Of a stretch of 42,302 bases of DNA, positions 7,363 through 42,302 are shown piece by piece. Source of the DNA: a virus (taxonomy: Duplodnaviria > Heunggongvirae > Uroviricota > Caudoviricetes). Each line of letters begins with the position of its first letter. The first letter of the stretch is position 1. Position numbers and translations under genes: made by a program. The stretch lies in IMG/VR virus record IMGVR_UViG_2713896905_000008. One strand, 5' to 3'. The notes under the pieces were generated by a model. It did no database searches. It had not been told where the DNA came from and saw only the letters and a list, made by a program, of their open reading frames with translations.

Positions 7363-7947
7363 TTACTCCGGATATTTAAAAATTACGTAGGTATGCGACG
7401 GGCAGAGTTTGTTAAGCACACACTCGACAACGGTGTCACCCCAGATACGCAGTGCGGAATCACAGGGATCGCCACATGTCATCCAGGTGGTGTTGGCGGC
7501 GGCTGGCATGTTGACCTGCCAGTAATACCGCCATTCCGGCGCATTCACAGCGTCAGTACAGGCCGATGAGCAGGTGAACGTGCTTTTGTCGTATCGCGTG
7601 ATGGTGGCATCCGGTCTGCCCAGGGCAGCAAGCTGTGCAAGATAAAAATCCTCGTTGATGCCGCCCGCCAGGTTAACCTTCGCATCCAGCCGTTGCTGAC
7701 GCTGGCGAAGGGTCTGTGTCCCTGCGGGAATACATTCATCCGGCAGACCGCACAGACGCTCCCAGCGGTTTATCAGTTCATTGGTGGTGCGCGGATCCAG
7801 CTCCCGCATCAGGGCATCCGCACGCTGATGAACGCGGGTTAATGACGGTGCCGCACCGGCAATCGCCGGATCGCTGGCTGACCACGCCGGACCGGGGGGC
7901 AACAGTGCCGACAACAGACGGATGTAATCATCGTTTGTCACGTCCAT
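7363..7947 (-). CDS. Mu gp48-like tail protein (YmfQ-like, DUF2313-type)
   Basis: 194 aa, between the baseplate J-like gene and the tail fibre; this length and position match e14 ymfQ. Confidence 0.7.
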
Positions 7948-8996
7948 GAAATCGTCCCCAGTACCGCCAGTTCATTTTTTGCAATGGAGATATTGTCTGC
8001 CGGTGCAAGCAACTGATGGCTGTATTCCCCGTTCGCACCGGAAATCGCCTCACTGATACGCGATACCTTCAGTTCTCCCTGCGGATAACCATCACGCAGC
8101 AGGAACGAACGCAACTCCGCGGTAATGGCAGCCCGTATTTCCGGTGTGTCCGGCGTCACACGGATATGAAAATCCACCGTATGTGCCACCGGCCTGAATA
8201 CATACAAATCAGAGCCTGCCACCGGGGCCAGTGGCCCGATATGTTGTCTTGCTGCCGTTTCCGTTGATTCTTCCGGAATGGGATTAATCAGGTCACTGCT
8301 GGCAATCATCACACCGACAGTTCCCGTTCCCATCCAGTGACGGTATGTCCATGCGCGGGTAATGCCGGGCACTTCTTTAGCCCAGACGACATAGTCCCCG
8401 TCAGCCCCGCCCTGAGGCGTCCAGTAATACCGCTCAATGACGCGGGCGCGCCACGTTTCCAGCTCTTCAGTATCAAATCCACCTGTCAGGGTATCTGCCA
8501 CGCCGGAAGACGGCAGACCATTAACCGGCGTGACCAGGATTAATGCCGTACCGTCGTCAGCGTTACCGACCGCGCCTGCACTTGAGCAGGCGATCGGCAC
8601 GCGCAGGACACCACCGGAGCTGGTTGCATCGGCAGTTGCCGTGTACTGAACCAGGTCATCGCGCTGAATAACACTCCCGGCGGTCACCTTCAGGCCATCG
8701 CTGACACCTTCCCAGCGCATATACCCGCTGGCAGCCGTGGCCCCCTTGCGCGGACACCGTTTCATCGCAGCATGTCGCGCCAGCCAGGACTCATCGCACA
8801 GGTCAGGCAGCATGTTCATTGCCAGATAATCGATGTATCCGTAAACCGTATGCAGCGCCGCCGCATACACCTTTGCCCGCACGTCTTCATCCATGCGCCG
8901 GAGCGTGTCGCTGACGTCCAGCCTGGCGAATAAATCGTTACGGAGCATACTGATATTTTCTGCCAGCGTCGGGCGCTGAAATTCACTGTCCGCCAT
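7938..8996 (-). CDS. baseplate J-like protein (Mu gp47-like)
   Basis: 352 aa; position in the Mu-like baseplate gene order. Confidence 0.75.
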
Positions 8997-9411
8997 GCGT
9001 TATCGCACTCCACAGATCATCAAAAGAAATCATTACCGGTCCGTCACGACGCCAGAGAGTGATACTGTTACCCAGTTCATTAATCCCGGTGCGGCGGATA
9101 TCCAGATCAATACGGGACACCACGCCGTCATCAATCATCCATTGCAGGCATTCGCGGATATACCCCCTTACCGTCAGCACCAGCTGATTGGTCAGTTTGC
9201 TGCGCTGAAGCAGCCACAGCCGGGAGCCGTAACGGTCATTCTGTACCGCAGGCCAAGTATCCCCCCACCATCCCATCGGGACGTCGGCGTTGTCATCAGG
9301 CTCCGCCCGCCGCCAGGTAAACAGGGAAATCACCACGGCGCGGGTCAGCGGATCCAGCGGTGCGCTGGCGCAGGTGCGTTTACCGTTCACCGTCAGCCAC
9401 AGTTCCATCAT
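8983..9411 (-). CDS. baseplate protein, Mu gp46-like
   Basis: 142 aa between the gp45-like and gp47-like genes with overlapping stops and starts. Confidence 0.6.
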   Translation of the reverse strand: MMELWLTVNGKRTCASAPLDPLTRAVVISLFTWRRAEPDDNADVPMGWWGDTWPAVQNDRYGSRLWLLQRSKLTNQLVLTVRGYIRECLQWMIDDGVVSRIDLDIRRTGINELGNSITLWRRDGPVMISFDDLWSAITHGGQ

Positions 9412-9956
9412 GCCTCCATCGCTTTATCCGGTTTGTCGGTGTTACTGCCCTGACCGTTCTCTCTGTGACGATGCCCGTTATAGGCAAGCCGCATCGCTGA
9501 CATGGTGGTGCCGCCGGAGTCGCACAGGTCTTTCACCTGTCCTGTCACTTCCAGGTCCATTTCAAAACGTGCTTTAGGTGAATTGCGAAACGTGATCGTT
9601 TTACCTGCACCGTCCACCACGATCCCCTCCCGGGTCAGCGTCACGGACTGCCCCTGATCGTCATAGACCGCCACCTCACCCGTCTGCAGCCCTTTCAGGC
9701 GGTAGCGCCGGTCCGACACCGTAACAACCACCGCATGAGAACGGTCGCCATCCGGAAACAACACCACCGCTTCCGCACCGCTGTTTGCCCTTGCGGTAAA
9801 ACCGTAGGGTTCAAGATGTTCAACCCCGGCTTTGGGTTCACCGGCAATCAGGGACACATCCACGGTCTGACATTTCGTGGCGGCACTGATGCTTTTCACC
9901 ACTGCCCGCCCAATCAGGCCGAGAAGTTGTCGCTGCATGGCTTCAATCGTCCTCAT
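9408..9956 (-). CDS. baseplate assembly protein V / spike (Mu gp45-like)
   Basis: 182 aa; position after the hub-like gene; translationally coupled. Confidence 0.65.
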   Translation of the reverse strand: MRTIEAMQRQLLGLIGRAVVKSISAATKCQTVDVSLIAGEPKAGVEHLEPYGFTARANSGAEAVVLFPDGDRSHAVVVTVSDRRYRLKGLQTGEVAVYDDQGQSVTLTREGIVVDGAGKTITFRNSPKARFEMDLEVTGQVKDLCDSGGTTMSAMRLAYNGHRHRENGQGSNTDKPDKAMEA

Positions 9957-11035
9957 CAGAACGGGTCCTCCTGTACTCTGGCTTTTTTCTTTTTCCGCGC
10001 GCCGGGGTCTTCAGGTTCAGGCAGATAAGCATCAGGCGGGCCGACACGGATTTCCGTCAGGGTGCCGTTCTGGTCCTGAGTAAACGTGACTTCCGAAACA
10101 AGCAGTTCGGTATTGTCAAAACCACAGACCGGATCAAAGACAATCACCCGCTGGTTGGGTTGCCACAGCGTACCGTTACCCTGTCGCCAGCCCTGCACCA
10201 CATAGGTGGTTTCATCCGTCCGCGCCGCCCGTTGCCGGGCTTCAAAGTCAGCACGCGCAATACAGCCTGCCCCCGTAGCCTGCCCTGTCTGCCTGATATA
10301 CATCGGACGGTAACGGGCAATAAATGCGTCCTCTGTGCGGGCCCGCAGCGCGGTGGTGGTGGCCTCACCGAAATCATCGTCGTTTCCGGCACGCTGCCCC
10401 GCCACCTGGTAAACAGAAAACCGCTCCCGGATACTCTTCTCCGTATCGCAGGAAAGGATGTTTTCCCCAAGTACCAGCGCGGTATGTGCCCGCGTTGAGC
10501 CAATACCACCAATCACCAGCCTGCCGTGCGGGTCGTCGTAAGCCAGCGCCTGCTGCTGACCGAGTATTTTGTTGATCACCTCAATCACCGTTTCACCGTG
10601 ATCAGGCTGGACATCAGGAATAACACCCGACGGCGCACCGCTGTTCACCACCTCAATGCCGAAAGGCGCAGCAAGCGCCTGCGCAATCTGTACCAGCGAT
10701 CGTCCGTTAAACTGTGTCGGTTCGGCTGCACAGTCAATCAGGTCAGCGGTCAGACTACGTCCGGCAATACCGGTGCTGACCGAACGGGCATCGTAACGAA
10801 CGGGCGTCGCCTCCACCCAGCCGGTGATCACCAGCTCATCACCAATCAGCACCTCCACTTTTGAACCGTTTTTAATGCGCGACTGAAGCGTGGTAATACC
10901 CTCATCTCCCGGCCACTGGCGGGTGATCTCCACACTGAAATCCCGCGCCAGTCGTTCAACACCGGCACCGATGCGCACCGATGTCCAGCCATTCCACTCC
11001 CGGCCATTTACCCGTAGCGTGACGTTATCGTTCAT
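9956..11035 (-). CDS. baseplate hub / late-control D-like protein (Mu P, gp44-like)
   Basis: 359 aa with N-terminal TLRVNGREW motif and C-terminal lysine-rich tail; position after the DNA-circulation gene. Confidence 0.7.
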   Translation of the reverse strand: MNDNVTLRVNGREWNGWTSVRIGAGVERLARDFSVEITRQWPGDEGITTLQSRIKNGSKVEVLIGDELVITGWVEATPVRYDARSVSTGIAGRSLTADLIDCAAEPTQFNGRSLVQIAQALAAPFGIEVVNSGAPSGVIPDVQPDHGETVIEVINKILGQQQALAYDDPHGRLVIGGIGSTRAHTALVLGENILSCDTEKSIRERFSVYQVAGQRAGNDDDFGEATTTALRARTEDAFIARYRPMYIRQTGQATGAGCIARADFEARQRAARTDETTYVVQGWRQGNGTLWQPNQRVIVFDPVCGFDNTELLVSEVTFTQDQNGTLTEIRVGPPDAYLPEPEDPGARKKKKARVQEDPF

Positions 11036-35934: not shown

Positions 35935-36069
35935 AGCTTTCTCCTTTTTAGGTAGTTAAGTTGTTACGAGTTGCAAGAATACAACATTAACAACTTTTAT
36001 CACAACTTTTAGGTGTTGGAAAGCTAAAACATAAAGTTGTAACCTCATCAAAAAAGAGAGGGATATGTT
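35935..36069. promoter_or_regulatory. OR-like divergent promoter/operator region between cro and cI
   Basis: Multiple copies of the half-site ACAACTT / AAGTTGT (AAGTTGTtacg..., ACAACAttaACAACTTttatcACAACTTtt..., ataAAGTTGTaac) in the 135-bp intergenic region. Confidence 0.6.
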
Positions 36070-36756
36070 GTGAAAACACTGGCAGAACGATTAAAGATAG
36101 GTAGAGAGAAAGCTGGCATGAGCCAAGCTCAACTAGCTGAAAAAATTGGACTTTCACAACAATCTGTAGCCAAAATAGAGAATGGCGAAACTCTACAACC
36201 GCGCAAAATTAAAGAAATTGCAAAAGTTTTAGGTGTATCACAAAAGTGGTTACAACTTGGTATTGAAGACAACGCATCCATACCTGATCTTGTTGTAAAA
36301 GAAGCAGAAAGCACCGCATTAGACCCCGATATTTTCGTAAACATTCCTGTTTTAGATGTCGAGTTATCGGCAGGTAACGGATGTCTGGCTGAAATAGTTG
36401 AATCAGCTATTGACTGGTTTCCGTTAAGAAGAGCAGATTTGAGAAAATCTGGCGTATGTGCATCTAATGCCAAGATCGTAAAAATATGGGGGAACAGTTT
36501 ATTACCGGTTCTCAATAATGGAGATCTTGTTGCCGTTGATATTTCTCAAACCATTCCTATTCGTGATGGCGATCTTTATGCCGTACGAGATGGTGTATTG
36601 CTAAGGGTTAAAATACTTATCAACTTACCTGACGGTGGCTTGATTCTTAGAAGCTTCAACAAAGATGAGTACCCAGATGAAATACTCACCTTTGAAGATA
36701 GACGAGCCAGAATTCATGTTATAGGTAGGGTATTCTGGTCATCGCGAACTTGGTAA
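36070..36756 (+). CDS. CI-like prophage repressor (HTH plus LexA/S24 peptidase-like domain)
   Basis: 228 aa; N-terminal HTH MSQAQLAEKIGLSQQSVAKIENG; C-terminal S24-like region (IWGNSLLPVLNNGDLVAVD). Probable GTG start. Confidence 0.8.
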   Translation: MKTLAERLKIGREKAGMSQAQLAEKIGLSQQSVAKIENGETLQPRKIKEIAKVLGVSQKWLQLGIEDNASIPDLVVKEAESTALDPDIFVNIPVLDVELSAGNGCLAEIVESAIDWFPLRRADLRKSGVCASNAKIVKIWGNSLLPVLNNGDLVAVDISQTIPIRDGDLYAVRDGVLLRVKILINLPDGGLILRSFNKDEYPDEILTFEDRRARIHVIGRVFWSSRTW

Positions 36757-37659
36757 TGCATCGAAAAGCATTTCTTCAGAAATAATTTTAAGTTTTGCAC
36801 CATTATCATCCCTATAAGATATAGCTTTTTCGATCTTCCTTCCGTGACTTGAGAATTTCCAATCACGGGAGGAAAGCGTCCCAATTACTAAAAAATCCAA
36901 CTTTTGAGTAATTCCACTACTGATGTTCCCACCAGCATTTTTAATCAAATTTTCAACTACGGCTCTCTTTCCTGCAACAAAAGTGCCTGTAAGACAATAG
37001 GTTTTACCCTCTAACTCTATCGAAGCCCCTACATCAATAGGCAGCCTGGTCGCCAAACCATCCACCACCCCACTTTCCAAGTCACATCCTGTGAAGTCTA
37101 CTAATGCCTTATGTAGAGTTAAACTCTCATCTTCAGTAATAACCCCATCTTTAAGAATTTCCTTTACAAGTGCATAAAGTTTTTTTCCTGGGTAGTTGTT
37201 CTTCAAAGCTCCATTTTGCTCAAGCCACCAATTAAGATATCTTATTTCTTCTTGAGTTAAGTTCCGATCAGCAATTAATCCTTTACATAGTCCATTAAGT
37301 AAATGGACATCTACATCCTTGGAGTAAAAATCAATTTCAGGGATATCAAGAATTTCCCTCTGTATTTGGAGAAGGCTATTTTTAAGGTCATCACGTTCTT
37401 CTGATGTGATTATTCCATCCGCAAGAATATCCGACACCCGTGCTGATAGACTTTTTATAACTCCATTATTGATAATCTGCTTTGCTTCAAGTAACCATGT
37501 ATCTAAGTAAAGAACCTCCTCTTCACGGACAACTCCATCTGCAATGATTCCATCAATGATGCTAATCAAGTTAGCAAATAACTTGTCCCGGTTCTGTGTG
37601 TAATTAAAAGCGTAAAGCGCGTCTTCCATACAACCTCCTTTTTTTGATAATCCTTGCAC
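36739..37659 (-). CDS. BRCT-domain protein with four N-terminal ~35-aa repeats, unknown function (cargo at rexAB-equivalent position)
   Basis: C-terminus LEGKTYCLTGTFVAGKRAVVENLIKNAGGNISSGITQKLDFLVIG...KLKIISEEMLFDAL parallels the LigA-type BRCT fold. N-terminal repeats each contain ..ADG.IT.EE...L.. A+T-rich; convergent with cI. Confidence 0.55.
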   Translation of the reverse strand: MQGLSKKGGCMEDALYAFNYTQNRDKLFANLISIIDGIIADGVVREEEVLYLDTWLLEAKQIINNGVIKSLSARVSDILADGIITSEERDDLKNSLLQIQREILDIPEIDFYSKDVDVHLLNGLCKGLIADRNLTQEEIRYLNWWLEQNGALKNNYPGKKLYALVKEILKDGVITEDESLTLHKALVDFTGCDLESGVVDGLATRLPIDVGASIELEGKTYCLTGTFVAGKRAVVENLIKNAGGNISSGITQKLDFLVIGTLSSRDWKFSSHGRKIEKAISYRDDNGAKLKIISEEMLFDALPSSR

Positions 37660-37692
37660 TCCTTGACTACACGTTCAAACCACATAAAGTTG

Positions 37693-37721
37693 TTGACAAT
37701 GTTCAAAATCACAACTAAATT
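37693..37721 (+). promoter_or_regulatory. pL-like promoter candidate with flanking operator half-sites
   Basis: TTGACA (37693-37698), 17-bp spacer, TAAATT (37716-37721). Flanked by AAAGTTGT, ACAACT and ACAACTT motifs shared with the OR-like region. Confidence 0.5.
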
Positions 37722-37880
37722 ACAACTTAAAGATGTTAAAAACAACAAACAGGCAGGACGCCCACGAAGTAGCCGCCTGGGGCATATGAAGTCCAGGATG
37801 ATTCGTTAGCAACAAAAAAGCGCCCTACAGGACGCTTAGCTCTTTAACAATCTGGTCCCCATCAACAAGTAACTGATAAC

Positions 37881-38508: not shown

Positions 38509-38639
38509 TTCTTTTCCTTTTGCGTTGTTGGGGATAACCAGATTAACCGAATCCTTGTTGTTGGGGAATAACCAGGTCCACCTCGCCTGATGTGGCTAAA
38601 AGCAGGCACATAACAGCTAAGTATTTTCAACCAGAGAGA

Positions 38640-38930
38640 ATCCTTAGCGTTGTGGTGAATGCGGCTCAGCGCACGCGGGTAAAGGTTGAGGCTGACAGTC
38701 GACCTTCTGTGGATACCCACCCGCCTGGTGTGCAACCTTCGCTAGGCACCGGGAGGCGCCCGGCACCACAACTTTATGCTGTGTGTAGTCTTGGCGGTAC
38801 CAGCTTGTACCCTTGCTTCCGGCTGGTACCGTCCTTTTTACAAAACAGAGAAGAGCATCACCGGACGACGGGCTCATAACCCAATCCATCCGGGCGGCTG
38901 CCACCGCAGGTGTTCTTCTCTGTTTTGTGG
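38640..38930 (+). ncRNA. candidate structured non-coding RNA / RNA regulatory element (strand uncertain)
   Basis: GC-rich region with no protein-like frame. Nested complementarity GTTGTGGTG (38650)/CACCACAAC (38765) and GCACGCGGGT/ACCCGC..GTGTGC; hairpin GGTACCAGC-16nt-GCTGGTACC followed by GTCCTTTTTAC; stem ACAGAGAAGA/TCTTCTCTGT around a 58-nt insert. Confidence 0.35.
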
Positions 38931-38976
38931 AGAAACCAACCGGCCTTGCAGGGTCGATATGATGAGGAGCAGCAAA

Positions 38977-39339
38977 ATGGCTAGCGAACGCAGTACTGAT
39001 GTGCAGGCATTTATCGGGGAGCTGGACGGCGGCGTATTTGAAACCAAAATCGGTGCAGTTCTCAGTGAAGTCGCTTCCGGTGTGATGAACACGAAAACCA
39101 AAGGTAAGGTCTCACTCAACCTGGAAATCGAACCATTTGATGAGAACCGTGTGAAAATCAAACACAAACTCTCATATGTTCGCCCGACTAACCGCGGGAA
39201 AATTTCCGAAGAAGACACCACCGAAACGCCGATGTATGTCAATCGCGGTGGTCGCCTGACTATTCTGCAGGAAGACCAGGGACAATTACTGACTCTTGCC
39301 GGTGAACCTGACGGAAAACTCCGCGCAGCAGGTTATTAA
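38977..39339 (+). CDS. YfdP-like early protein
   Basis: 120 aa from MASERSTDV with GAGGAG SD 7 nt upstream; precedes a YfdQ-like gene. Confidence 0.5.
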   Translation: MASERSTDVQAFIGELDGGVFETKIGAVLSEVASGVMNTKTKGKVSLNLEIEPFDENRVKIKHKLSYVRPTNRGKISEEDTTETPMYVNRGGRLTILQEDQGQLLTLAGEPDGKLRAAGY

Positions 39340-39404
39340 TATCGTTCTTAATTAACTGATTATTTACCTCATCACTGAATATCTTTATATAGTGAGGACT
39401 TATT

Positions 39405-40229
39405 ATGTCTCAGAACTTAGACGCAACCGCAATTAATCAAATCCATGCCCTTATTTCTGCTCAGGGTGTTAATGAAATTATCAGTAAGATTGGTGCCGAC
39501 GCAGTGGCATTACCTGAAAATTTCCGCATTCATGATCTGGAAAAATTTAATTTAAATCGCTTCCGTTTCCGTGGTGCGCTTTCCACTGCCAGCATCGATG
39601 ACTTTACCCGTTATTCTAAAGATCTTGCAGATGAAGGCACCCGCTGCTTTATCGATGCCGATAATATGCGAGCCGTCAGTGTGCTTAACCTAGGCACTAT
39701 TGATGAACCTGGTCATGCAGATAACACCGCCACTCTCAAACTGAAAAAGACAGCACCGTTCTCTGCTCTGTTGTCTGTTAATGGCGAGCGTAACTCCCAG
39801 AAGTCACTGGCAGAATGGATTGAAGACTGGGCCGACTACCTTGTAGGCTTTGATGCTAATGGTGACGCTATTCAGGCAACAAAAGCGGCTGCGGCTGTCC
39901 GTAAAATCACGATTGAAGCAAACCAGACCGCTGATTTTGAAGATAATGACTTCAGCGGAAAACGCTCCCTGATGGAGTCTGTCGAAGCGAAGACCAAAGA
40001 TATTATGCCAGTGGCATTTGAATTTAAATGCGTTCCGTTTGAAGGTCTGAAAGAACGTCCGTTTAAATTACGCCTCAGCATTATCACTGGCGATCGTCCT
40101 GTACTGGTTCTGCGCATTATTCAGTTGGAAGCAGTCCAGGAAGAAATGGCTAACGAATTTCGTGATCTGCTTGTTGAGAAATTCAAAGACAGCAAAGTAG
40201 AAACCTTTATTGGTACTTTCACCGCCTGA
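39405..40229 (+). CDS. yfdQ: YfdQ-like protein (DUF2303-type)
   Basis: 274 aa; size and position as in the yfdP-yfdQ-yfdR arrangement of the CPS-53 prophage; assignment by family from memory. Confidence 0.5.
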
Positions 40230-40241
40230 TTTCATTACTGC

Positions 40242-40263
40242 AAATGCCCCTGCGGGGGCATTT
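40242..40263 (+). terminator. stem-loop after the yfdQ-like gene (possible intrinsic terminator or attenuator)
   Basis: AAATGCCCC-tgc-GGGGGCATTT perfect hairpin 13 nt after the stop; weak U-tract. Confidence 0.35.
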
Positions 40264-40329
40264 ATGGAAACGTAATTTACTCAATAATCGCCGGATGGTA
40301 AGGGATTCTTTTTACCAGAATTCAGCGCG

Positions 40330-40893
40330 GTGCAGGGCATATACGTGGAGAACAAAATGTCATTTATTAAAACTTTTTCCGGGAAGCATTTTTATTATGA
40401 CAAGATAAATAAAGATGACATCGTTATTAACGATATCGCGGTTTCCCTTTCAAATATCTGTCGTTTTGCAGGACATCTTTCACACTTCTACAGCGTCGCC
40501 CAACATGCGGTGCTTTGCAGCCAGCTGGTACCGCAGGAATTTGCTTTTGAAGCGTTAATGCATGATGCAACAGAAGCATATTGCCAGGACATCCCCGCAC
40601 CACTGAAACACCTTCTTCCTGACTATAAACGGATGGAAGAAAAAATAGACGCCGTAATCCGTGAGAAATACGGGTTACCCCCAGTTATGAGTACGCCCGT
40701 GAAATATGCCGATCTCATCATGCTGGCAACCGAACGCCGCGATCTCGGACTTGATGATGGCTCTTTCTGGCCTGTACTGGAAGGTATCCCGGCAACAGAG
40801 ATGTTCAAAGTGATTCCACTGGCACCGGGTCATGCCTACGGAATGTTTATGGAACGATTTAAAGAGCTGCATAAGATACATAAACAATCCTGA
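40330..40893 (+). CDS. yfdR: HD-domain phosphohydrolase (YfdR-like 5'-deoxynucleotidase)
   Basis: HD motifs SVAQHAVLC and LMHDATEAY; likely start at MSFIKTF. Confidence 0.65.
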   Translation: MQGIYVENKMSFIKTFSGKHFYYDKINKDDIVINDIAVSLSNICRFAGHLSHFYSVAQHAVLCSQLVPQEFAFEALMHDATEAYCQDIPAPLKHLLPDYKRMEEKIDAVIREKYGLPPVMSTPVKYADLIMLATERRDLGLDDGSFWPVLEGIPATEMFKVIPLAPGHAYGMFMERFKELHKIHKQS

Positions 40894-40933
40894 CAGCGAA
40901 ATTAACTAGTGAAATAGTTTTGTAGCAAAAGAA

Positions 40934-41194
40934 ATGAGGTTATCAAAAATGCTTCAAATGCTGACACTTGAGGAATGGGCTGCGGAAAAATTTAGGAGTA
41001 ATCCTCCAAGTGTGTCCACATTGCGTCGTTATGCTAAGCAGAATTTATTTTGTCCACCAGCAATGAAACAAGGTCGACTCTGGCGAGTACGTGAGGACGC
41101 AGAGTTAGTTGGGGAATTAGTTACTCCTGTCATCAAGAAAAGTGATTCTATTATTCTACAAAGGATTTTAAGTAATGGCAGCCAGACCACGTAA
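40934..41194 (+). CDS. xis: excisionase (lambda Xis-like)
   Basis: 86 aa; LTLEEWAAEKF...STLRRYAKQNLFCPPAMKQGRLWRVREDAEL parallels lambda Xis; overlaps the int start. Confidence 0.75.
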   Translation: MRLSKMLQMLTLEEWAAEKFRSNPPSVSTLRRYAKQNLFCPPAMKQGRLWRVREDAELVGELVTPVIKKSDSIILQRILSNGSQTT

Positions 41195-42302
41195 AAATAA
41201 TGTCTCAGTCCCGAACTTGTATCCGCTCTATAGCAGAAAAGTAAATAAAGTCTATTGGCGATATAAGCATCCAGTGACCGGGAAGTTTCATTCTTTGGGC
41301 GCAAACGAAGCTGAAGCCATTGCTATTGCCACTGAGGCCAATACACGCCTGGCTGAGCAAAGAACCCGGCAGATTCTGGCTATCAGTGACAGGATCGCAA
41401 CCAGCAAAGGAAAAGCAATCACAACGTCAACCTGGTTAGATCGCTATCAAGCAATCCAGGATGACAGACTGAAAAGTGGCGATATAAAGCTCAACACCTA
41501 TAAACAGAAAGCCAAACCAGTATCCTTGCTCAGGGAACGAGCAGGAATGAAGTTAATTTCATCCGTTGATGTAAGGGATATAGCACAATTGCTTGACGAG
41601 TATATCACTGCTGGGCAACCGAGGATGGCGCAAGTAGTCCGCTCCGTTCTAATTGATGTATTCAAGGAGGCACAACACTATGGGGAGGTCCCTCCTGGCT
41701 ATAATCCAGCATTAGCGACCAAACAGCCCAGAAGAAAAATTACCCGACAACGGTTAAGCCTTGAAGAATGGCAAAAAATCTTTGATATCGCAGATGCCAG
41801 TCATCGTTATATGGGGAATGCCATGCTGTTAGCACTGGTTACCGGTCAGAGGTTAGGTGATATCTCGCGTATGAAATTTAGCGATATTTGGGATGATCAT
41901 CTCCATATCATTCAGGAAAAGACCGGGAGCAAAATCGCAATTCCTCTTTCTCTTCGTCTCAACGCGATTAACTGGAGTTTACGCGATGTAGTCGCTCGCT
42001 GCCGTGACTATGCAGTCAGCCCATACCTTGTACATTTTTTCCGTACTACTTCACAGGCTGAACGTGGCGCGCAGGTTAAATCCAATACATTGACCATGAA
42101 TTTCAGTAAAGCAAGGGATTTGGCAGGAATCGACTGGGGGGATGGATCGCCCGCAACATTCCATGAACAAAGATCTTTATCTGAACGTCTTTACAAACAA
42201 CAGGGGTTAGACACACAAAAACTACTTGGTCATAAATCACAACAACAAACCGATCGTTATCATGATGATCGAGGTAAAGGATGGAGCAAAGTAGCATTGT
42301 GA
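41175..42302 (+). CDS. int: tyrosine integrase (lambda Int family, e14 IntE-like)
   Basis: 375 aa, complete, with stop at the last three bases of the window. C-terminal catalytic region (HEQRSLSERLY, LLGHKS, DRYHDD). 3' end faces the window edge, where the att site is expected. Confidence 0.9.
   Translation: MAARPRKNNVSVPNLYPLYSRKVNKVYWRYKHPVTGKFHSLGANEAEAIAIATEANTRLAEQRTRQILAISDRIATSKGKAITTSTWLDRYQAIQDDRLKSGDIKLNTYKQKAKPVSLLRERAGMKLISSVDVRDIAQLLDEYITAGQPRMAQVVRSVLIDVFKEAQHYGEVPPGYNPALATKQPRRKITRQRLSLEEWQKIFDIADASHRYMGNAMLLALVTGQRLGDISRMKFSDIWDDHLHIIQEKTGSKIAIPLSLRLNAINWSLRDVVARCRDYAVSPYLVHFFRTTSQAERGAQVKSNTLTMNFSKARDLAGIDWGDGSPATFHEQRSLSERLYKQQGLDTQKLLGHKSQQQTDRYHDDRGKGWSKVAL

Follow-up and report, generated by a model that had tools for sequence, protein, structure and literature searches.

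A CPS-53-type yfdP-yfdQ-yfdR cassette joined to an e14-type xisE-intE arm: an obligate gene pair and a separable HD-domain gene

The stretch of DNA analysed here (the window: 42,302 nucleotides, IMG/VR record IMGVR_UViG_2713896905_000008, a virus of the Caudoviricetes) carries three co-directional open reading frames that are followed by an excisionase and an integrase gene. The genes and the one structural element between them are the following.

38977..39339, + strand: yfdP, 120 aa, 98% identical to K-12 b2359
39405..40229, + strand: yfdQ, 274 aa, 99% identical to K-12 b2360, DUF2303 (PF10065)
40242..40263, + strand: G+C-rich hairpin AAATGCCCC-TGCG-GGGGCATTT, read directly from the sequence
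40357..40893, + strand: yfdR, 178 aa, 95% identical to K-12 b2361, predicted HD-domain phosphohydrolase
40949..41194, + strand: xisE excisionase, 94% identical to K-12 e14 XisE, Pfam Exc at E 2e-12
41175..42302, + strand: intE integrase, 96% identical to K-12 IntE, with Arm-DNA-bind_1 and Phage_integrase domains

Compared by BLASTP with the proteins of the K-12 prophage CPS-53 (KpLE1), 118 of 120 residues are identical in YfdP, 272 of 274 in YfdQ and 168 of 176 in YfdR. The order P-Q-R on one strand is that of K-12, and the intergenic gaps of 65 nt and 127 nt are equal in both. An earlier note, made from the letters of the window, had said that the three genes resemble the yfdP-yfdQ-yfdR block; the likeness stands, while the wording understated it, since these are the same genes at 95–99% protein identity and RefSeq already names all three yfdP, yfdQ and yfdR. 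On these comparisons we regard it as practically certain that the cassette is of the CPS-53 type, with K-12 b2359-b2361 as its orthologues. As such the find is ordinary, for the cassette is already known as an accessory module of lambdoid prophages.

Two gene starts had to be decided. The yfdR frame can be read as 187 aa from GTG 40330 or as 178 aa from ATG 40357, the K-12 start, and YfdP could be extended to 187 aa from ATG 38776. Both longer proteins were dropped for the starts at 38977 and 40357, which agree with those in K-12 and RefSeq, with the Shine-Dalgarno sites and with where homologues have their N-termini. For yfdP, the Shine-Dalgarno sequence GAGGAG stands 7 nt before the ATG; its extended frame overlaps an sRNA-like element described below, where the RefSeq annotation is 'frameshifted hypothetical'.

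At the codon level, yfdQ differs from its K-12 counterpart by 22 synonymous and 2 non-synonymous changes. The yfdR gene has 10 non-synonymous differences, 8 of them in codons 169-178, so that 10 of the 178 residues of the protein differ and 8 of these lie among the C-terminal 10; outside these junction codons the count is 24 synonymous to 2 non-synonymous. The last ~10 codons diverge because they hold the mosaic junction to the e14-type xis-int arm, and matches of phage-record DNA to the cassette stop at about window position 40866. The cassette proteins are evidently under purifying selection, and a decaying pseudogene remnant is ruled out by the intact reading frames and by differences from K-12 that are overwhelmingly synonymous.

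On its downstream side yfdR adjoins xisE directly, as the earlier note had correctly placed it, and the terminator scan gave no + strand terminator in the interval between them. The integrase can be assigned from its sequence to the lambda-type tyrosine integrases of the e14 (icd-inserting) type; in a relative, L001, icd lies ~2.8 kb from the integrase with two cargo genes in between. This is where the window departs from CPS-53. In K-12, yfdR is followed by yfdS, yfdT, ypdJ and torI, and the integrase is IntS with its argW site, whereas in the window yfdR leads straight into e14-type xisE-intE with the junction inside its last ~10 codons. The yfdR-to-xisE junction occurs in 109 of 5426 complete E. 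coli genomes, and yfdS and/or yfdT come after yfdR in 58 of 80 IMG/VR E. coli prophage loci. The slot is variable within the e14 type, as had been proposed, because K-12 e14 has ymfH, ymfI and ymfJ there, together with a repressor unrelated to that of the window.

Upstream of the cassette, three further elements were found on the same strand.

37693..37721, + strand: candidate pL promoter TTGACA-17-TAAATT, from a promoter scan, 10/12 matches
38619..38842, + strand: STnc100/PasD-family prophage sRNA-like element, Rfam RF02076, 43.2 bits, E 5e-8
38840..38928, + strand: long imperfect leader hairpin, inverted repeat I1, 25-nt arms, 84% complementary

The RF02076 match covers the full model at a score just below the gathering threshold of 47. 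The element shares with STnc100/PasD the CACCGGGAGGCxCCCGGCACCA hairpin and the 3' terminator, the latter being a 13-bp hairpin followed by TTTTT at ~38793-38837, immediately upstream of the cassette. STnc100/PasD sRNAs have been described in prophage context (bioRxiv 10.64898/2026.05.13.724894), and among the 80 IMG/VR E. coli prophage loci the element is present at full length in ~36 and as its 3' hairpin part only in 40; a second copy was not found within the window. A put-like antiterminator RNA as in HK022 was considered for the element, which matched the STnc100 family instead. The leader hairpin shares part of its 5' arm with the T-run of the terminator-like hairpin before it, and the RNA from 38780 to 38990 folds at -87.1 kcal/mol (z -4.6). 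K-12 CPS-53 is without the window's yfdP leader, its homology beginning only ~20 nt ahead of the yfdP start codon; K-12 has lost the native leader and the sRNA, which the window keeps. Scanning the interval between the sRNA terminator and yfdP gave no sigma-70-like promoter. The candidate promoter at 37693..37721 is flanked by operator-like ACAACTTTA..TGT repeats, which recur in the cro-cI interval, and the repeats D13, I9, I10 and I11 are common to 35945-36040 and 37674-37741. We infer that this promoter is pL.

How widely is the cassette shared? It occurs in 3100 of the 5426 complete E. coli genomes (~57%) and in 49 phage records, including SfV, SfIV and Stx2c phages, with which window positions 38700-40866 share ~97% DNA identity. 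Members of the lambdoid cluster are SfV orf30-32, SfIV, ST64B gp35-37, LLS gp37-39, the Stx2c and Stx2a phages and mEp460, and one paper describes the yfdP/yfdQ/HD-hydrolase cluster as common in lambdoid early-left operons and of unknown function (PMC12315714). In lambdoid phages the cassette takes the same position as in the window, between a cI-type repressor and xis-int, with mosaic flanks; in 28 loci it lies downstream of an S24/HTH cI-type repressor and has xis or int downstream. From these comparisons the cassette emerges as a mosaic module of E. coli prophages.

Within this module the three genes do not travel alike. Of 80 species-level loci, 79 have YfdP immediately ahead of YfdQ. YfdR is present in 59 of the 80 and absent from all distant ones. 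The pair extends from enterobacterial lambdoid prophages through marine gammaproteobacterial prophages to Xanthomonas CP2-like podophages, for which no integrase or repressor is annotated in the fetched regions. The pattern reveals two evolutionary units, an obligate YfdP+YfdQ pair and a separable YfdR, a division that is new here. The G+C-rich hairpin at 40242..40263, which sits in the 127-nt yfdQ-yfdR gap, is without a T-run and went unflagged by the terminator scan, marks the seam between the two.

The position and spread of the cassette bear on the view that it is a moron-like gene set of benefit to the lysogen, expressed in the prophage state and raising host tolerance to oxidative stress, acid or DNA damage. 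Deletion of yfdQ, yfdS or the whole of CPS-53 was reported to give more sensitivity to H2O2 or acid, and deletion of yfdQ more sensitivity to MMS (Wang 2010 and Rooney 2009, as cited in PMC4776307), and over half of E. coli genomes, as well as K-12 within a cryptic prophage, have kept the cassette intact and under purifying selection. The reported phenotypes are however weak and come from K-12, whose native leader is lost. In addition, the cassette lies in a repressed early-left operon, behind a terminator-like hairpin and without a promoter-like site of its own, and the pair is also found in the CP2-like podophages. We consider this explanation very unlikely.

What, then, do YfdP and YfdQ do? 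YfdP belongs to Pfam PF27127, which is annotated on all homologues, and it matches phrog_204, a family of unknown function, at E 1e-49. Its AF2 model (pLDDT 66) has a long helix and a 3-strand sheet. YfdQ matches DUF2303 with 309.7 bits (cut-off 26.6; E 2e-92) over model positions 2-269 of 269; this family comprises ~1,800 clusters at 50% identity, all of them single-domain proteins of ~270 aa. For neither the YfdP model nor the YfdQ model (pLDDT 77) did Foldseek, in a PDB set without entry 9o7m, return a match at E <=0.001, and in BFVD every match was a DUF2303 protein or an uncharacterised viral one. Searched by profile with both proteins, the PDB sequences gave nothing besides 9o7m, a solved YfdQ homologue entitled 'YfdQ Protein' (E 1e-44), whose sequence maps to Xanthomonas CP2-like podophages; a literature search found no paper citing the entry. 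It holds 36 chains, and therefore a large homo-oligomer is possible, as with many SSAPs.

The neighbourhood of the pair in distant phages offers another hint. In all four distant loci that were examined individually (Xanthomonas phage CP2, Hahella, Kistimonas and Pontibacterium) YfdPQ is found among recombination genes (ERF or RecT, YqaJ exonuclease) and/or SSB genes. Phage CP2 has the order YfdP-like, YfdQ, DUF1351-like, ERF, YqaJ exonuclease, HNH, SSB. In Hahella it is Sipho_Gp157, YfdP, YfdQ and an SSB-like ORF, and in Kistimonas a YqaJ-like exonuclease, YfdP, YfdQ and an SSB-like ORF, the last gene being judged by eye in both; in Pontibacterium, Bet/RecT-like and YqaJ-like ORFs, assigned by eye, precede YfdP and YfdQ. 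A pooled Pfam tally of flanking ORFs counts 4 SSB, 2 YqaJ and 1 RecT. Together with the 36 chains of 9o7m, and with the MMS and H2O2 sensitivity of the yfdQ deletion as cited second-hand, these neighbours are what speaks for the pair assisting phage recombination or the metabolism of ssDNA, for example as a modulator of SSAP, exonuclease, SSB or host RecBCD, and being, in lambdoid phages without a canonical Rec module, a remnant of the Rec block or a stand-in for it. Yet gene neighbourhood is the only link found, and Rec genes are not nearby at most enterobacterial loci. The searches of the PDB gave YfdP and YfdQ no profile or fold likeness to Rad52, RecT, ERF or Gam, YfdQ has a mildly acidic pI of 5.0 and shows no evident motif for DNA binding, and PMC12315714, which notes the cluster also in phages whose four-function Rec module is complete, judged an unrecognised recombinase unlikely. 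To a recombination role we give a small probability.

YfdR can be placed with more precision. In an alignment of 22 family sequences H50, H69, D70 and D119 are invariant and E73 and D78 nearly so, and the metal-ligand residues align with their counterparts in the HD protein Atu1052 (PDB 2gz4), which phmmer matches almost from end to end at E 5e-13. The HD catalytic residues, whose alignment the earlier note had set beforehand as the test of its call of an HD phosphohydrolase, are present, and YfdR is confidently predicted to be a metal-dependent phosphohydrolase with an intact H..HD..D site. The same note had gone further and called it an enzyme of the 5'-deoxynucleotidase type, a part of the claim that does not follow from the sequence. 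Against Pfam YfbR-like YfdR scores 25.6 bits (cut-off 25.9), against HD_3 17.4 bits (cut-off 22.5) and against the NCBIfam YfbR equivalog NF003009 21 bits where the cut-off is 122. An hhalign comparison with YfbR reaches 40% probability across just 36 columns at the HD motif, in which YHDAsEvltgDlPtPvK of YfbR (PDB 2paq) aligns with the segment MHDAtEayxxDiPaPlK, and phmmer against 2paq gives E 0.57. (A three-way YfdR/YfbR alignment by MAFFT misplaced all but the HD motif and was left out of the residue claims.) YfbR and Atu1052, itself uncharacterised, share the metal-binding pattern of the HD superfamily with YfdR, which by these scores is only a distant relative of YfbR and no YfbR equivalog. 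Because the similarity is marginal, the substrate is not inferable from sequence, and the nucleotidase label derives from published assays of the K-12 protein.

A further explanation, along the lines of the earlier note, has YfdR work chiefly on the nucleotide pool or against host defence: early in infection it would dephosphorylate dNMPs from host DNA, or degrade nucleotides that serve defence systems as signals or arise as their products. YfdP and YfdQ would be unrelated passengers. On the basis of the published assays K-12 YfdR carries the annotation 5'-deoxynucleotidase, the window's YfdR matches phrog_318, annotated 'deoxyribonucleoside 5' monophosphate phosphatase', at E 4e-107, its metal site is intact, and it is separable from YfdPQ; YfdR-family genes occur alone in 332 phage records of many hosts, including jumbo phages of 220-280 kb. 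On the other side, the similarity to YfbR is marginal, and the nucleotide affinities of K-12 YfdR are reported to be far lower than those of YfbR (Zimmerman 2008, as cited in PMC4776307). No PADLOC model matches YfdP, YfdQ or YfdR at E 0.01, the library being one of defence and not of anti-defence proteins; a literature search found no paper tying the YfdR family to defence evasion and no link of the cassette to a defence or anti-defence role. We think it unlikely that this explanation is the right one.

A second published activity of YfdR, which the earlier note did not mention, concerns DnaA. In K-12, the binding of YfdR to DnaA domain I depends on Phe46, and YfdR competes with DiaA and DnaB (PMC4776307); multicopy yfdQR together with yfdS or yfdT blocks initiation at oriC (Noguchi and Katayama 2016, PMC4776307). 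With yfdQR alone there was no suppression, yfdS or yfdT being also required; deletion of yfdQRST had no initiation phenotype, and the overexpression phenotype is possibly an artefact according to its authors (PMC4776307). They likened YfdR to lambda P and SirA (PMC4776307). The likeness to the DnaA-directed regulators DiaA, Dps, B. subtilis SirA and lambda P (domain III) is one of functional analogy to K-12 YfdR only: there is no sequence or fold relationship, and the K-12 effect was seen in multicopy only. A DnaA-specific role is not to be assumed for the whole family, because the 332 phage records span many hosts, including those of Bacillus and Caulobacter phages. Homologues of yfdS, yfdT and torI were not found anywhere in the window by tblastn at E 0.01, and with yfdQ and yfdR only it appears to be without the minimal set for the published replication-inhibition effect.

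Can these pieces be joined into one account? In the explanation that we prefer, the prophage is of the e14 type and the cassette would lie distally in its early-left (pL-side) operon, right in front of xis-int. Upon prophage induction, antiterminated leftward transcription would read through the STnc100-like terminator, and the cassette would be expressed together with xis-int. YfdR would then act on host replication and on the nucleotide economy: it may hydrolyse (deoxy)nucleoside 5'-monophosphates, and may bind DnaA domain I in competition with DiaA and DnaB like its K-12 orthologue. By either activity initiation of the host chromosome would be restrained and phage DNA metabolism favoured. 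Besides the low nucleotide affinities of K-12 YfdR and the published need for yfdS or yfdT, it speaks against this that an engineered strain gained no CMP yield from a yfdR deletion. YfdQ, probably with YfdP as a large oligomer, would serve as a cofactor or as a separate accessory of DNA metabolism. This mechanism, which draws on analogy with the K-12 protein, we put forward tentatively, as a possibility that falls somewhat short of an even chance; blended with the firm identity of the cassette, the explanation as a whole stands about evenly balanced.

The cassette as a find matters little: its genes have names and annotations, most E. coli genomes carry them, and the cluster is in the literature. 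YfdP and YfdQ are very widespread in phages, and for YfdR two published activities compete, a weak dNMP phosphatase and a DnaA binder. The present analysis narrows where to look: P and Q are obligate partners and travel with recombination or SSB genes in distant phages, and R is separable. Because the window copy keeps its leader while yfdS and yfdT are absent, it also constitutes a natural test of whether these two genes are needed for the DnaA-directed phenotype. A bolder reading, in our estimate a rather doubtful one, is that YfdP and YfdQ make up a self-contained two-protein phage machine acting on host or phage DNA transactions, to which YfdR is a frequent add-on; possible targets include the initiation of replication, traffic of RecBCD or SSB, and a defence system. 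If that were true, the cassette would hide a new class of early phage effector.

The three genes directly 5' of the excisionase and integrase genes lie on one strand:

38977-39339, + strand, yfdP, ORF of 120 aa
39405-40229, + strand, yfdQ, ORF of 274 aa
40330/40357-40893, + strand, yfdR, ORF of 187 aa from a GTG or 178 aa from an ATG
40949-41194, + strand, excisionase (XisE), ORF 3' of the cassette
41175-42302, + strand, lambda-type integrase (IntE) with Arm-DNA-bind_1 and Phage_integrase domains

In a direct protein comparison with the K-12 CPS-53 prophage, YfdP is identical at 118 of 120 residues, YfdQ at 272 of 274 and YfdR at 168 of 176, the last being the alignment that the earlier note had proposed. 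The gaps between the genes (65 nt for yfdP-yfdQ, 127 nt for yfdQ-yfdR) are equal in both. What that note had described as three co-directional genes resembling yfdP-yfdQ-yfdR upstream of xis-int are therefore, beyond mere resemblance, the same genes. The cassette is a known and already annotated feature: in close relatives RefSeq names yfdP, yfdQ, yfdR, xisE and intE, adjoining icd, the e14 attachment site. The observation is thus confirmed, and its interpretation is supported with the qualifications discussed below. Relative to K-12, yfdQ carries 22 synonymous and 2 non-synonymous codon differences, and yfdR 24 synonymous and, outside the junction codons, 2 non-synonymous ones; both genes are kept by selection and show no decay.

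The block is widespread and its borders are mosaic. A 2.5-kb probe (38700-41200) matches 3100 of 5426 complete E. coli genomes and also 49 phage records, including SfV (orf30-32), SfIV, Stx2c-converting phages, mEp460 and vB_EcoM-689R6. The phage matches begin at 38700 or 38791 and end at about 40866, within the final codons of yfdR, and eight of the ten non-synonymous differences from K-12 yfdR fall in codons 169-178, where the C-terminus reads KELHKIHKQS instead of NDLSELRKCA. Together, these two observations place the seam with the e14-type xis-int arm across the 3' end of yfdR, at 40866-40893 (the last ~10 codons). Beyond it, IntE shares 96% and XisE 94% identity with its K-12 e14 counterpart. 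The earlier note was also right to call this a slot that differs from e14: K-12 e14 has ymfH, ymfI and ymfJ between xisE and an unrelated repressor, where the window has yfdPQR. In CPS-53 the 3' end of yfdR overlaps the start of yfdS, and yfdS and/or yfdT follow yfdR in 58 of 80 IMG/VR E. coli prophage loci, whereas no homologue of yfdS, yfdT or torI was found anywhere in the window. A 241-nt probe spanning the yfdR-xisE junction reaches a coverage of 80% or more in 109 of the 5426 genomes, making this arrangement a minority mosaic that is not unique. At its attachment-site end, the prophage of the close relative L001 (E. coli GF131) carries cargo between intE and icd: a DNA adenine methylase and an AAA family ATPase (7596-10235). 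The window ends at the int stop codon, and the matching region falls beyond it.

New in this analysis is the comparative anatomy of cassette loci. Of 80 loci, with each species represented by a single genome, 79 have a co-directional YfdP homologue immediately 5' of YfdQ, and the 80th is truncated on its 5' side. YfdR occurs in 59 loci, as an adjacent gene in 54, and 21 lack it, among them every distant locus (Marinobacter, Hahella, Photobacterium, Kistimonas and Pontibacterium). The cassette therefore consists of an obligate YfdP-YfdQ pair and a separable HD hydrolase; in the window a G+C-rich hairpin (40242-40263) sits in the gap between the two units. The nearest two + strand ORFs on either side, scanned with Pfam and tallied with all loci pooled, include upstream a repressor of the S24/HTH cI type (28 loci), YqaJ (2), RecT (1) and a T7 gp5.9-like protein (1); downstream were a Rv2179c-like exoribonuclease (9), integrase (7), Exc (5), SSB (4), ParB-HTH (4) and DUF551 (2). 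The repressor likewise precedes YfdP-YfdQ, and xis/int follow the pair, in Stx2a phage WGPS2 and in Pseudomonas phage PG1, an identical layout.

In the cases that are most distant (CP2, Hahella, Kistimonas, Pontibacterium) the pair lies within the recombination block. Xanthomonas phage CP2 (L165, 2639-8241) encodes ORF38, YfdQ, a DUF1351-like protein, ERF, YqaJ exonuclease, HNH and SSB; ORF38 is YfdP-like (hhalign 99.2%), and the YfdP-YfdQ pair heads the operon. Hahella has Sipho_Gp157, YfdP, YfdQ and an SSB-like ORF, and Kistimonas a YqaJ-like exonuclease, YfdP, YfdQ and an SSB-like ORF, both SSB-like ORFs being judged by eye; in Pontibacterium, Bet/RecT-like and YqaJ-like ORFs, assigned by eye, precede YfdP and YfdQ. 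This link is guilt by association only, and a recombination or single-stranded DNA accessory role for the pair seems to us rather unlikely. The proteins themselves give few hints. YfdQ matches DUF2303 along its full length (309.7 bits), and YfdP belongs to the newer Pfam family PF27127 and to phrog_204, a PHROG without a named function. The AF2 models (pLDDT 77 for YfdQ; 66 for YfdP, a long helix and a three-strand sheet) gave no significant PDB fold match, and the only BFVD hits were DUF2303 proteins or phage proteins without a characterised role, one of them from an actinophage. A PDB-sequence profile search found one YfdQ relative, 9o7m ('YfdQ Protein'), an entry of 36 chains that share one sequence; Xanthomonas CP2-like podophages encode proteins 94-99% identical to it. 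Our literature search found neither a paper citing the entry nor a functional paper on DUF2303. The family comprises 1776 clusters at 50% identity, and the best-scoring 150 representatives are nearly all 250-300 aa, with a few shorter fragments. About twenty positions are near-invariant, among them P37, E46, R56, T61, Y70, F82, G97, P102, H104, Q132, E140, D141, R166, E191, R223, E242 and G270, with no recognisable catalytic motif.

YfdR offers more. The HD residues whose loss would have spoken against the enzyme are present. Across an alignment of 22 family members H50, H69, D70 and D119 are invariant and E73 and D78 nearly so. The protein aligns almost end to end with the HD protein Atu1052 (PDB 2gz4, E 5e-13), with matching SVAQH, LMHDAtE..D.P.P.K and KYAD segments. 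As for the proposed 5'-deoxynucleotidase type, sequence comparison does not support membership in the YfbR family proper (25.6 bits against a Pfam YfbR-like cut-off of 25.9; 21 against 122 for the NCBIfam YfbR equivalog; hhalign probability 40% over 36 columns). The name derives from assays of K-12 YfdR, as cited by Noguchi and Katayama (2016, PMC4776307). Genes of the YfdR family are found in 332 records of phages that infect many different hosts, including 220-280 kb jumbo Caulobacter phages and a 156-kb Acidovorax phage, so the family exists independently of YfdPQ and of E. coli DnaA. The earlier suggestion of a pure nucleotide-pool or anti-defence enzyme seems to us rather unlikely. A PADLOC search gave no match for YfdP, YfdQ or YfdR. 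K-12 YfdR also binds DnaA, with DnaA Phe46 important for binding, and multicopy yfdQ and yfdR with yfdS or yfdT inhibit initiation at oriC, both in extracts and in vivo; yfdP can be left out, yfdQR alone are insufficient, and deletion of the genes has no initiation phenotype (PMC4776307). The main weakness of a mechanism acting on host replication is that its only in vivo phenotype is multicopy and needs yfdS or yfdT, both absent from the window.

The upstream region bears on when the cassette would be expressed:

37693-37721, + strand, promoter-like site TTGACA-17-TAAATT (promoter scan)
between candidate pL and yfdP, + strand, ORF of 73 aa
38074-38508, - strand, gene for an ECs1072-family phage-associated protein (NCBIfam NF033230, 158 bits)
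38619-38842, + strand, STnc100-like element (Rfam RF02076), 224 nt, full model, 43.2 bits (gathering score 47), E 5e-8
38840-38928, + strand, imperfect yfdP-leader hairpin, 25-nt arms, 84% complementary

Operator-like repeats of the ACAACTTTA..TGT type and their complement flank the promoter-like site (37674-37741) and recur in the cro-cI interval (35945-36040), an arrangement that fits a candidate pL/oL and a candidate oR, respectively. A further operator-like copy, ACAACTTTATGCTGT, lies at 38768-38782 within the STnc100-like element. The ECs1072-family gene lies between pL and this element and runs antisense to the transcript presumed to start at pL; of 80 related loci in E. coli prophages, only ~10 have it. 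The STnc100-like element sits in the 468-bp gap 5' of yfdP and ends in a strong 13-bp hairpin followed by TTTTT. STnc100 is related to the PasD prophage sRNAs (bioRxiv 10.64898/2026.05.13.724894). About half of the related prophages have only its 3' hairpin part, and in relatives RefSeq places a 'frameshifted hypothetical protein' across it. The 5' arm of the leader hairpin overlaps the T-run of this terminator-like hairpin (fold z -4.6 for the 38780-38990 RNA), and the two may be alternative structures in attenuation or antitermination. K-12 CPS-53 differs in lacking the native leader and its hairpin, its homology starting ~20 nt before the yfdP ATG. In the scan, the stretch from the STnc100-like terminator to yfdP had no promoter-like site, and that from yfdR to xis had no terminator on the + strand. 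Most simply, the cassette and xis-int would be carried together on antiterminated leftward transcripts after induction. A lysogen stress-tolerance function is quite improbable. Immediately past the cI-type repressor, in a rexAB-like moron position, the opposite strand carries a gene (36739-37659, -) for a protein of 306 aa that ends in a BRCT domain. This protein matches phrog_3989 and, weakly (E 3e-7), PDC-S48, a candidate defence family in PADLOC; the gene may be expressed in the lysogen and serve exclusion or defence.

The gap in YfdP and YfdQ biochemistry is field-wide and not peculiar to the window. We tentatively favour, at well short of even odds, a reading of the cassette as an early lytic accessory acting on the host's replication and nucleotide economy, in which YfdR would act as a phosphohydrolase and/or binder of DnaA domain I, and YfdQ, with YfdP, would be a cofactor or a parallel accessory of DNA metabolism.
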